Assembly (NCBI GenBank): GCA_016650365.1
Contig: JAENVV010000313.1
Span: 3,786-67,785 of the forward strand
DNA length: 64,000 nt
Direction of reading: 5' to 3'
DNA from: Acidimicrobiia bacterium
GTDB lineage: Bacteria > Actinomycetota > Acidimicrobiia > Spongiisociales > JAENVV01
Below the pieces are notes generated by a model. The model did not search any database. It had not been told where the DNA came from and saw nothing but the letters and a program-made list of their open reading frames with translations. Both the position numbers and the translations under genes were made by a program. Shown in pieces: positions 23,325-32,105 of the stretch. Positions within the stretch are counted from its first letter, which is position 1, and the number at the start of each line of letters is the position of its first letter.

Positions 23325-24434
23325 CTACTTATCTCCTTCGGTGTCCGCATCGGCGGCCGCATCGGCGGCGTCTGCTTCTGGAGCAACTGCCGGGGCGGCT
23401 TCAACGACGGCCTCTTTCTCAACTGCTGCCTCTTCGACAACTGCCTCGGGGGTGGCTTCGGCAACGACGACGTCAGTTTCAAGCATGTCCGTTGTCTCGT
23501 CGTCATTGCCGTCGGCAACGTTGACGTCGACAATCGGAGTGTCAACGTCTGACATCTCTTCCTTGTATACCGATTCGGCTTCATCTGCACTCATCTTGCG
23601 GGGCTCTTCAGCCTCGGTTTTGGCAAATTCCTTGCGCTTGCCACCACCGGCTTCGATGAGACGCTTGCCACCACCGGCTTCGATGAGACGTGGCTTCTTC
23701 TCACCACCAGCAGCAAGCTCGGCCCGTGCCTTGGCCGGGACAACCCGACCGCGGTTACCAGAGGCGAGCTGCGCCTCGGCGGCAATTTTTTCACGCGTTG
23801 CCTTGAGAGTGGTCACCAGGTCGCCCTTGTAGACCCAAACCTTTACACCGATCGCCCCGACGGTCGTCCGGGCAGTTGCCATTCCGTAGTCGATGTCGGC
23901 GCGCAACGTATGCAACGGAACCCGGCCTTCGCGATACCATTCGCGCCGACCCATCTCGGCCCCGCCGAGACGGCCCTTGCATTCAACCTTGACGCCCTGT
24001 GCACCCGACTTCATGGCCGTCTGCACGGCCCTTTTCATGGCCCGTCGGAAGGCAACCCGATTGGCGATCTGATCGGCAATCCCCCGAGCCAACAACGTGG
24101 CGTCGGTTTCGGCATCCTTGATCTCGTTGATGTTCAGTTTGACCTGACGACCGGTGAGTTTCTCCAGGCCGCCGCGCAAGCGCTCGGCTTCGGCGCCCTT
24201 GCGGCCGATAACGACGCCAGGACGAGCCGTGAACAGCTCGATCTCGACGCGACCGCGGCTTCGCTCAAGTTCGATCCGGGACACCGCGCCACGCTCGAGT
24301 TCGCCGAATAGGTAGTCGCGAATCTTCCAGTCCTCGTTGACGAGTTCCGTATATTCCTTCTCGGCATACCAACGCGATTTCCAGTCGTTGACGATGCCAA
24401 GACGGAACGCGTAAGGATGTGTTTTCTGACCCAC
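23325..24434 (-). CDS. rpsC: 30S ribosomal protein S3 with long acidic low-complexity C-terminal extension
   Basis: N-terminal KH and S3-C domains of about 230 aa, followed by about 140 aa of Ala/Glu/Asp/Val-rich tail. Confidence 0.9.
23637..23690 (-). repeat. perfect 27-bp in-frame tandem duplication inside the rpsC tail
   Basis: Unit CTTGCCACCACCGGCTTCGATGAGACG occurs twice back to back, encoding KRLIEAGGG twice. Confidence 0.8.
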
Positions 24435-25149: not shown

Positions 25150-25986
25150 TTAGCGACGTCCCTTCTTGGAGCGGCGACGCACGATTTCTTTGTTGCTCGC
25201 TTTGTTCTTCTTGCGGGTCCTGGCCTCTGGCTTACCCCAGGGGCTCACAGGATGGCGACCACCAGAAGTCTTGCCCTCACCACCACCGAGTGGGTGGTCG
25301 ACCGGGTTCATGGCAACACCACGGCTTTGCGGCCGGACGCCCTTCCAGCGGTTACGTCCCGCTTTTCCGAGCTTGACCAATTCCGCTTCCGGGTTACCAA
25401 CTTCGCCAACCGTCGCCCGACAATCGAGCGACACGGTGCGCATCTCGCCAGAGGGCAGACGAAGCAAAGCTTTGTCGCTCTCTTTGGACATGAGCTGGGC
25501 CGAGTTACCGGCGGATCGCACCATCTTGGCACCGCCGCCGGGACGCATCTCGATGGCGTGAATAACCGTACCACCGGGGATATTGCGCATTGGCAGGGCG
25601 TTCCCTGGCCGGATATCGGCTCGCGGACCAGATTCGACCATGTCGCCGACCTTGACACCGAGCGGCGCCAGAATGTAGCGCTTCTCCCCATCGACATAAT
25701 GCAGCAGAGCCAACCGGGCGTTGCGATTCGGATCGTATTCGATGGCCGCAACCTTGGCGGGAATCCCGTCCTTGGTGCGACGGAAGTCGACAACCCGGTA
25801 ACGCTGCTTGTGGCCACCGCCACGATGGCGAGACGTGATCCGGCCCTTGCTGTTGCGACCGGCCGTAGCCTTCTTCTTCTCGAGCAATGCCTTTTCGGGC
25901 TTTTTGCCTTTGGTCAGTTCCGCAAAATCCGAAACCGTCTGAAATCGGCGACCTGGCGAGGTCGGCTTGTGTTTTTTCACAGCCAT
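25150..25986 (-). CDS. rplB: 50S ribosomal protein L2
   Basis: 278 aa L2 sequence. Confidence 0.95.
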
Positions 25987-28151: not shown

Positions 28152-28541
28152 TCACGGGGTCAGCAGGCTCAACTCCAACGGATTCCCACACTCCCCCAAT
28201 ACCGAATCATTCGCCGTGATCACAGCAACGGTGGCGCCGTCGGGAACAACCACGCCCGACAATGATCGGGTAAACGGCTGTTCGTCTGCATGAGGGTGGG
28301 TGAGTTCTCGCCGACCTATCTCGACGCCGTCGACCCGGACAATCCACGCATCTGCATACTTGTCCCAGCCGTGGTCGTCCGAGGCCACCGTGACCGTAAA
28401 GGTGTGGGTACCGTTGTACGAAGTTTCGACGTCGGCCCTGATGACATCGGCGCACCCCTCATCGCCAACCAGTTCCGGCGCTCCGGCGGTCGACACGGGG
28501 CCACACCCGGTCAAAATGACGACGAGCAAGGCGCTGGCCAT
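28152..28541 (-). CDS. hypothetical lipoprotein
   Basis: Lipobox MASALLVVILTGC|G, about 129 aa, four Cys in the mature part. Occupies the position between fusA and rpsJ where tuf usually lies. Confidence 0.45.
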   Translation of the reverse strand: MASALLVVILTGCGPVSTAGAPELVGDEGCADVIRADVETSYNGTHTFTVTVASDDHGWDKYADAWIVRVDGVEIGRRELTHPHADEQPFTRSLSGVVVPDGATVAVITANDSVLGECGNPLELSLLTP

Positions 28542-28618
28542 TGGGCGATACGATGAGTTCCGACGCACCGGCCAAGACTACTCGGACAGGCACCATTACG
28601 GGGTTCGGGTTCTAATTG

Positions 28619-30781: not shown

Positions 30782-30870
30782 GATATGTCCTTCGTTGTCA
30801 ATGACCGCCGACCAGGCCGGAGATCGCGGATTCTTTCTCGTTAGACAACCGGGCCTTGCCGGGGGTCTGG

Positions 30871-30938
30871 CTACCAGCGGTAGGGGCCCTACCAGCGGTA
30901 GCGGCTGCTACCAGCGGTAATGCCCACTACCAGCGGTA
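30871..30938 (-). repeat. 4-copy tandem array of the 12-mer CTACCAGCGGTA (18-19 bp period) from the rpsG stop into the rpsG-fusA spacer
   Basis: Copies at 30871, 30889, 30908 and 30927. The last copy encodes the YRW-stop of S7, and each RNA copy UACCGCUGGUAG contains UAG. Confidence 0.8.
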
Positions 30939-31397
30939 GTGGGCAAATGCCTTGTTGGATTCAGCCATCTTGTGGATGTCTTCACGGCGCTTCATCGCAG
31001 AACCCGTCCGGTTGCTGGCGTCCATGATTTCGTTTGCAAGGCGCTCAGACATGGTTTTTTCTTTTCGTCGACGGGAATAGTCGACGAGCCAGCGAATGGC
31101 CAGCGTGTTGGCGCGACGGGGGGGAACCTCAACCGGCACCTGGTAGGTGGATCCACCGACACGACGTGAGCGAACCTCGAGGTGCGGCTTCAGATTGTCG
31201 ATGGCTCGTTTGAGCACCACACTGGGGTCTTGCCCCGAGCGTCGCTCAACAGTTTCAAGCGCCGTGTACACGATGGCTCGTGCGGTTTCTTTCTTACCGG
31301 CCAGCAAGACCTTGTTCGTAAGCTGACTGACGGCCAACGAGCCGTAGACGGGATCTGGTTCGATATGACGTTTCTGGGCGGGTCCGCGACGTGCCAT
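30927..31397 (-). CDS. rpsG: 30S ribosomal protein S7
   Basis: Starts at internal [18 protein letters not shown] (156 aa) and overlaps the rpsL stop. The ORF-track extension is spurious. Confidence 0.95.
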
Positions 31398-31399
31398 GG

Positions 31400-31768
31400 T
31401 TAACCCTTCTTCGTTCCATAGCGGGAACGGGCTTGCTTGCGGCCTTGAACCGAACCGGTATCGAGGGCACCACGAATGACTTTGTAGCGAACACCAGGAA
31501 GGTCCTTTACACGACCACCACGAACCAGGACGATGCTGTGCTCCTGGAGGTTGTGACCTTCGCCGGGGATATAGGCGGTTACTTCGACGCCCGAGGTGAG
31601 GCGCACACGGCAAACCTTACGAATGGCGGAGTTCGGCTTCTTGGGGGTGACGGCGTATACACGCGTGCATACCCCGCGACGCTGCGGTGCCCCTTTGAGG
31701 CCCGGCGTCTTTTCCTTCTTCGACTTTGCCTGTCGGCCCTGTCGAACCAACTGGTTAATCGTCGGCAT
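31400..31768 (-). CDS. rpsL: 30S ribosomal protein S12
   Basis: Begins [13 protein letters not shown], 122 aa. Confidence 0.95.
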
Positions 31769-32105
31769 TCTGCTCCCTTATCAAAGGCCCCTGAATCGAG
31801 GCTTACGCGTATAGCGGTCCGTTGGAACGGACCTTTTCAAGACCTACCACACCCACCATGTATTCCAAGGAGGGACATACGAGGGCAGGTTTCAAAAACC
31901 TGAGTCGCCAGTATATGGCCACCAGGTGCTGGCGCCAAAACGGCAGCACCTGCCAAGTCGAACGAAATCCGACCGACCGTTTGCGAAGTGTACGCCCATC
32001 TGACGTTTCCGGTCAACCCGGGACTCCGTCCTCATTGAGAGCTAGGCCATTCGGACCTACCGGATGGCGCCTCCATGAGCGAGAATCTAAGTGAGAAAGG
32101 ACATA

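Follow-up and report, generated by a model that had tools for sequence, protein, structure and literature searches.

A hairpin-forming tandem repeat at the rpsG-fusA junction of an uncultured Acidimicrobiia bacterium, probably a lineage-specific minisatellite

The window, by which we mean the whole stretch of 64,000 nucleotides analysed here, contains on its minus strand a str-type operon encoding S12 (rpsL), S7 (rpsG) and EF-G (fusA) (Table 1). Only 2 nt separate the rpsL stop codon from the rpsG start codon (31398-31399; 0-3 nt in relatives), which suggests tight translational coupling and leaves no space for an S7 operator like that of E. coli. The SD sequence of fusA, GAAGGA, lies 6 nt upstream of its GUG start codon. 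Downstream of fusA is a hypothetical ORF of 138 aa (28152-28568, minus strand), followed by rpsJ. In the classical str operon tuf is linked to fusA, in contrast to the window, where the EF-Tu signature GHVDHGKTT was not found in the whole 64 kb, indicating that tuf is unlinked to fusA here. Two sigma-70-like promoter matches upstream of rpsL (31910-32016, minus strand; TTGACC-18-TACACT and TTGGCG-17-TATACT) are candidate operon promoters. A sequence scan of the rpsG-fusA spacer revealed no promoter-like or terminator-like site.

Table 1. Genes, repeat copies and predicted hairpins around the rpsG-fusA junction (window coordinates)
Feature	Position	Strand	Remarks
rpsL (S12)	31400-31768	−	First gene of the str-type operon; ORF list; the identical protein in L001-L006 matches Pfam Ribosom_S12_S23
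rpsG (S7), 156 aa	30927-31397	−	ORF list; PF00177; C-terminus ...AFAHYRW-UAG (CAC UAC CGC UGG UAG)
Perfect hairpin UGCCCACUACC-GCU-GGUAGUGGGCA	30921-30945	−	11 bp, 3-nt loop, 100% complementary; encloses the rpsG stop; in MFE structures
Copy 1, UAC CGC UGG UAG	30927-30938	−	Tyr-Arg-Trp-stop of rpsG; constant through coding selection
rpsG-fusA spacer, 145 nt	30782-30926	−	
Inter-copy spacer 1, UGGGCAU	30920-30926	−	Combines with upstream coding bases to complete the perfect 11-bp stem-loop of copy 1
Copy 2	30908-30919	−	Non-coding; UAG in frame +1
Inter-copy spacer 2, CAGCCGC	30901-30907	−	Segment diverging most between alleles
Copy 3	30889-30900	−	Non-coding; UAG in frame +2
Inter-copy spacer 3, GGCCCC	30883-30888	−	Apex of the copy 3/copy 4 hairpin
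Copy 4	30871-30882	−	Non-coding; UAG in frame +2
Long hairpin, copies 3 and 4 paired together	30870-30902	−	14 pairs, one mismatch; inverted repeat; in MFE structures
fusA leader, conserved 3' part of the spacer	30782-30865	−	SD GAAGGA; near-invariant in alleles A-E, independent of the array
fusA (EF-G), GUG start, 696 aa	28691-30781	−	ORF list; Pfam domains on homologous genes in L001-L003

The sequence TACCGCTGGTAG (mRNA sense, minus strand) occurs in four exact copies within 30871-30938. As the earlier note on this DNA had described, the 12-mer UACCGCUGGUAG recurs in tandem, with start-to-start distances of 19, 19 and 18 nt in mRNA order. With 100 dinucleotide-preserving shuffles of the window as the background, 0.00 exact matches are expected. 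Elsewhere in the 64 kb there is a single match with at most two mismatches, an unrelated one at 25342. TRF reported the array at 30871-30944 with a period of 19, 3.9 copies and a score of 86. The array is 68 nt long, and its 3' end lies 89 nt before the fusA start. It is not an assembly artefact, because the same or allelic arrays were found in independent ENA, NCBI and Logan assemblies and 68 nt is shorter than a typical sequencing read.

The copy that supplies the end of rpsG had been taken for the most downstream one; it is in fact the 5'-most in the mRNA, and merely has the highest plus-strand coordinate. The inverted symmetry (TACC..GGTA) remarked on in each unit is present, and is extended by the flanking C and G, so that the unit reads C-UACC-GCU-GGUA-G and can form a hairpin of 5 bp with a 3-nt loop. 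Each unit also contains a UAG, as had been claimed, but only that of the first copy is in phase with rpsG: the UAGs of copies 2-4 lie at offsets of +19, +38 and +56, corresponding to frames 1, 2 and 2. The next stop codon in the rpsG frame is a UGA 41 codons further on. A GUG overlapping the rpsG stop (UAGUG) starts a mini-ORF of 12 codons that ends at the UAG of copy 3 (30889-30927, minus strand); the same frame relation exists in two further alleles (B and C, Table 2), and probably follows from the 19-nt period.

Relatives of the window were retrieved by exact look-ups of its S7 and S12 proteins, which returned contigs from independent assemblies. Exact look-ups of EF-G, of a 76-aa neighbour and of a DUF6198 neighbour gave no further genomes of this lineage, and the S7 of the nearest species-representative genome was 71% identical among the matches listed. 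The closest S7 proteins are attributed to Acidimicrobiia by their sources. The rpsG-fusA junctions of the close relatives form an allelic series (Table 2).

Table 2. Alleles of the array in the window and its close relatives
Allele	Sequences	Array
A	Window, L006	Four perfect 12-mers; spacers UGGGCAU (UGGCCAU in L006), CAGCCGC, GGCCCC
B	L004	Four copies, two mutated (copy 3 CACC..., copy 4 ...GCCGG...); spacers UGGCGAC, UGCCGAA, GGCCUC
C	L132 (GCA_024641305.1), L134	Four copies, three mutated (as allele B, plus copy 2 UGCC...)
D	L135-L140	Two copies, the second UACUGCUGGUAG; rpsG-fusA spacer 106 nt, against 145 nt in the window
E	L001, L002, L003, L005	S7 100% identical; UAUCGCUGGUAG then CCA(A/G)CCUGCCUGAU(A/G)G; spacer 105 nt; no above-chance duplicate

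Neighbour-joining of rpsG gave the topology (E,((B,C),(A,D))), which indicates that four copies are ancestral to alleles A-D and that allele D is a contraction by 39 nt. The relic in allele E matches at 7 of 12 positions, within the chance level for a direct repeat. Further out, the array is absent where S7 is 96%, 92%, 91%, 86% or 85% identical (L133, L141-L157), with no copy above the control level. As the control, the terminal 12-mer of each of 130 unrelated rpsG loci was compared with the next 120 nt of its own locus, and the best match was recorded; these loci came from a metagenome scan anchored on the end of rpsG, and are mostly unrelated bacteria sharing a common 24-mer. The best match was 6/12 in 28 loci, 7/12 in 66, 8/12 in 30, 9/12 in 5 and 10/12 in 1. 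None of the 130 reached 11/12 or more in the region downstream of rpsG, so that the matches of 11-12/12 in alleles A-D are unique. Concerted evolution in the distant relatives was considered on account of degenerate downstream pseudo-copies in L133 and L141-L148 (8/12 in L133 and L141), which seemed to echo the Arg codon of the gene itself (CGG and CGA). It was rejected as lying at the chance level, since self-matches of at least 8/12 occur in 28% of the control spacers.

The earlier note had offered a slippage-prone minisatellite as one reading of the array, and the allelic series bears this out: four, two or one copies are found at identical or near-identical S7, and the copies decay by point mutation. 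It had also proposed aligning the spacers of related genomes, with absence from close relatives and a lack of covariation speaking for a slippage product; the array is indeed lacking in four contigs (L001, L002, L003 and L005) whose S7 is 100% identical to that of the window.

Substitution rates on the A-D tree were estimated as parsimony steps, with the fourfold degenerate sites of rpsG, at 0.28 steps per site on a five-taxon tree and 0.19 on a four-taxon tree, as the reference. The repeat units are without significant constraint (copies 2-4 show 4 steps in 36 sites, 0.11 per site, versus 8.0 expected at the fourfold rate; P = 0.10), and the inter-copy spacers are hypermutable (8-10 steps in 20 sites, 0.4-0.5 per site, versus 4.5 expected). 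Purifying selection clearly acts on the fusA leader, independently of the array, with about 0.05 steps per site in the 84 nt that precede fusA. Units and spacers differ significantly, with a Fisher P of about 0.003 in ungapped form, and of about 0.02 with the changes in inter-copy spacer 2 counted as indels. In the lineage of the window, all 36 non-coding repeat positions are perfect and the 20 spacer positions have changed several times. This contrast is the sole feature that possibly points to selection on the units, and homogenisation by template switching could also produce it: two published accounts describe template switching at quasi-palindromes as homogenising repeat arms and yielding clustered multinucleotide changes (PMC7202029, PMC8604942).

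Between allele A and alleles B and C, the four-copy state has been retained over a divergence of about 19% at fourfold sites. Of the four changes in copies 2-4, three leave the RNA hairpin intact (A-U to G.U, C-G to U.G, and one change in the loop). A C-to-G change in an inter-copy spacer, specific to the window, perfects the 11-bp stem of copy 1, which fits the pattern of template switching. An inversion of inter-copy spacer 2 was examined as proof of that process and set aside as not decisive, the reverse complement matching at 11 of 16 positions and the direct sequence at 10 of 16.

Relatives whose S7 is as little as 91% identical still share a recognisable version of the last ~50 nt of the rpsG-fusA spacer. 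We considered whether this 3' part forms a structured, covarying fusA leader, and rejected the idea, the sole structure predicted being a small hairpin with a single compensatory pair. The conserved 3' part looks like a translation-initiation region rather than a riboswitch-like leader.

Since the units are quasi-palindromic, the direct repeats double as inverted repeats, and the array in the mRNA is predicted to fold into hairpins after the rpsG stop. Folding of the spacer RNA, as the earlier note had suggested, gave a strongly structured array, with predicted energies of −46.6 (window), −44.0, −38.8 and −43.3 kcal/mol in the four-copy alleles, versus −18.6 kcal/mol for the two-copy allele and −10.0 kcal/mol for the one-copy allele. 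The full spacer folded with z = −3.8 against shuffles. In sister alleles the whole array is predicted to form one nested hairpin, in which copy 1 pairs with copy 4 and copy 2 with copy 3.

The stop-proximal MFE (−18..+30) in the window was −27.7 kcal/mol, in the 1% tail of the 130 control rpsG ends (mean −13.4, sd 5.3). Values of −20.5 to −22.6 kcal/mol were obtained for L006 and alleles B, C, D and F, and of −9.9 to −14.6 kcal/mol for alleles E and G, which are ordinary compared with the controls. On the strength of these ordinary values, a hairpin at the rpsG stop conserved throughout the clade was rejected. We likewise rejected the idea that the array sequesters the fusA SD, whose unpaired probability in the partition function differs little, being 0.57-0.58 with four copies, 0.54 with two and 0.64-0.69 with one. 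No U-tract follows the hairpins, CCAGACCCCC coming after copy 4, and this, together with the scan for terminator-like sites in the spacer, led us to reject a rho-independent terminator. A known RNA family was rejected as well, as the window contained no gathering-level match to Rfam 15; a permissive Rfam search over the array gave as its best hit a spurious miRNA model (E = 0.97).

Among the control loci, an independent tandem repeat was found in another Acidimicrobiia MAG (L068, JAJDTF010000100.1), whose S7 is 66% identical. TRF reported it at 1956-1991 with a period of 15 and 2.5 copies, and it begins in the last rpsG codons (CAC UACCGCUGGUAA CA GUCCGCUGGUGA GCA GUUCGCUGGCGA). Local repeats thus seem to have formed more than once at the rpsG terminus. 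This recurrence is most simply explained by the palindrome UAC-CGC-UGG-UA(A/G) in a very highly transcribed operon, and the independent repeat in L068 is in line with a mutational hotspot at this palindrome; it could equally reflect recurrent selection.

Several other local repeats were noted. In L117 (JADKLW010000100.1), the 0-40 nt past the rpsG stop contain a borderline duplicate, UACCGCUGGUAGGC ... UACUGCCGGUAGGC, with 12 of 14 matches at a distance of 24 nt, and in an Acidobacteriota MAG (L027) a (UCGG)n microsatellite lies directly 3' of the rpsG stop. Within the window itself, the S3 gene (23325-24434, minus strand) contains a perfect tandem duplication of 27 nt in two copies (23635-23690, TRF score 112), an in-frame 9-aa repeat in the long C-terminal tail of the 369-aa protein; this is the second recent tandem duplication in the r-protein cluster of the window. 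Three S7 proteins of 217 aa (P0002, P0005 and P0008, on contigs of less than 1.1 kb) were considered as read-through products and rejected, since their extra length is an internal duplication of ~60 residues; their halves resemble different lineages, and they are probably chimeric assemblies.

We considered whether the array is a selected RNA module, in which a strong post-stop hairpin, acting as an insulator of the ribosome termination structure (RTS) type, an RNase barrier or an RNase III-type site, sets the S7:EF-G ratio and is tuned by copy number. Alleles E and G fold ordinarily (−9.9 to −14.6 kcal/mol), and allele E, one of the two, has the S7 and the fusA leader of the window, so that no hairpin is required at this site. 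Against this stands the stop-proximal fold of the window itself, which lies in the 1% tail of the 130 controls (−27.7 versus a mean of −13.4 kcal/mol). That the 12-mers change less than the spacers between them also argues for selection, as does the retention of pairing by most unit mutations through G.U pairs, which are relevant in RNA only; however, the rate of the 12-mers is not significantly under the synonymous rate (P = 0.10), and template switching at quasi-palindromes gives perfect arms without selection, according to the two accounts (PMC7202029, PMC8604942). The four-copy state has persisted over substantial synonymous divergence, a similar repeat arose independently in L068, and RTS structures lower re-initiation (PMC7518266), all of which would suit such a module; the predicted accessibility of the fusA SD, being nearly independent of copy number, would not. 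On balance we consider a selected module of this kind unlikely, if still worth keeping in view. A more specific version, in which the array is a selected, copy-number-tunable post-stop module, made from copies of the palindrome at the rpsG stop, that as an insulator or processing site would control the flow of translation or transcript from S12-S7 to EF-G and would have arisen more than once in the Acidimicrobiia (in this clade and in L068), strikes us as quite unlikely.

The earlier note had also offered a binding platform or structured RNA element through which fusA translation would be regulated, with S7 as the implied regulator. Four identical, regularly spaced hairpin motifs within an r-protein operon would indeed suit multi-site binding by S7, in autogenous control of fusA, or by another RNA-binding protein, but most of the comparisons tell against it: genomes with a 100% identical S7 and the same leader do without the array, its conservation is limited to one sub-clade, no Rfam r-protein leader was found, and the predicted accessibility of the SD is nearly unchanged. 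Moreover, the uS7 site of E. coli lies 5' of its own cistron and not in the rpsG-fusA gap (PMC10931766), and the 13-mer CTACCGCTGGTAG has no match with three or fewer mismatches in the 16S rRNA of E. coli (rrsB). We hold this reading to be highly improbable. At the DNA level, the palindrome CTACC-N3-GGTAG, repeated four times at regular spacing, could be read as a set of operator or iteron-like half-sites for a DNA-binding protein. Such a role is extremely improbable given a period of 18-19 bp that is out of helical phase, a motif that is found nowhere else in the 64 kb, copies that decay or vanish in sister lineages, mutations that tolerate G.U pairs, meaningless in DNA, and a spacer with no promoter. 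Hardly any weight attaches, finally, to a role in translational recoding or safety, with the repeated UAGs as back-up stops or the UGG-UAG hairpins as take-off and landing sites for ribosome hopping. The extra UAGs are all out of the rpsG frame, in which read-through would run 41 codons to the UGA, and the array is absent in relatives; each unit does hold UGG-UAG inside a hairpin, yet every later UGG directly precedes UAG, so that hopping would yield no new product, and the coverage of all three frames by the UAGs is due to the period of 19 nt.

The array is therefore best explained, in our judgement, as a lineage-specific, copy-number-variable minisatellite derived from the 3' end of rpsG, and this reading is probably correct; any function would be at most modulatory. 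The rpsG codons UAC-CGC-UGG and the UAG stop spell the small palindrome by chance, and a unit of ~19 nt that contains it was tandemly duplicated, up to four copies, in the common ancestor of a sub-clade within an uncultured, Acidimicrobiia-like actinobacterium. The sequences show the duplication itself; its probable mechanism is slippage in replication, or an intrastrand template switch, at the hairpin. A deletion of 39 nt later contracted the array to two copies in one descendant lineage. In the mRNA, the array would fold as one long nested hairpin or as two to three shorter ones after the rpsG stop. The folded array might shield fusA from ribosomes once they have terminated at rpsG, and/or might separate the rpsL-rpsG segment of the mRNA from that of fusA by forming a barrier or a processing site; an insulating or uncoupling effect, if any, would be modulatory and not essential. 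Judged by the sequences of the alleles, neither S7 nor EF-G needs the array in order to be expressed at all, since it is missing from sister lineages whose S7 and fusA leader are the same.

The minisatellite reading makes the locus a natural example of how a chance codon palindrome (Tyr-Arg-Trp-stop) may seed a hairpin-forming tandem repeat in an essential, highly expressed operon. As the array expands, contracts and decays among close relatives, it offers a case study for slippage and template-switch mutagenesis, and it could be a strain-typing marker for this uncultured Acidimicrobiia clade. It would gain weight if its copy number tunes the S7:EF-G ratio. The analysis reveals no new regulatory system, and removes the idea of S7 autoregulation through the array.

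On the features tested, the array stands outside the uS7 operator, MIRU, REP and terminator families. REP/BIME palindromes stabilise upstream mRNA segments, for example in malE-malF. Like them, the array consists of GC-rich intercistronic stem-loops, and it could protect the upstream message from 3' exonucleases; unlike REP elements, with hundreds of dispersed copies per genome, its motif occupies a single locus in the 64 kb and comes from local coding sequence. In E. coli the uS7 site is located between rpsL and rpsG and is similar to the S7 site of 16S rRNA (PMC10931766). The array shares with it the operon and the character of an intercistronic RNA hairpin region, but is situated between rpsG and fusA and is not conserved with S7.

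The array resembles VNTR or minisatellite loci, such as the mycobacterial intercistronic MIRU-VNTR loci, in being a head-to-tail series of repeats between two cistrons of an actinobacterial operon. Its copy number varies between close relatives (1, 2 or 4) at the same locus with identical flanking genes, its units degenerate by point mutation, and its first unit overlaps a gene boundary. Unlike in MIRU-VNTR loci, the unit is just 18-19 nt long and is derived from the 3' end of rpsG itself, not from an element that is mobile and dispersed. MIRUs are inserted at start codons together with a coupled small ORF (PMC12548453), whereas the array is a single locus in the 64 kb that abuts the upstream stop and ends well before the fusA start. 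With the quasi-palindromic hotspots of template switching, as described in the two accounts (PMC7202029, PMC8604942), it shares imperfect inverted repeats, perfected arms in the window, and clustered changes in loops and spacers. It differs from the classical cases, in which a single inverted repeat is perfected, in that it was also amplified in tandem to four units.

Stable structures just 3' of stop codons, termed RTS, were shown to inhibit re-initiation in a synthetic operon of E. coli; they are enriched at intergenic distances of at least 25 nt (Chemla et al. 2020, PMC7518266). The array is likewise a stable predicted mRNA structure immediately 3' of a stop codon, with a gap of 145 nt to a cistron that has its own SD. 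In contrast to RTS, which are a statistical class of structures and not a repeat family, it is built of tandem copies of the stop region, is far stronger than is typical, and is absent in sister lineages. If the array is active, it would most likely work like a ribosome termination structure or a REP-type mRNA barrier.
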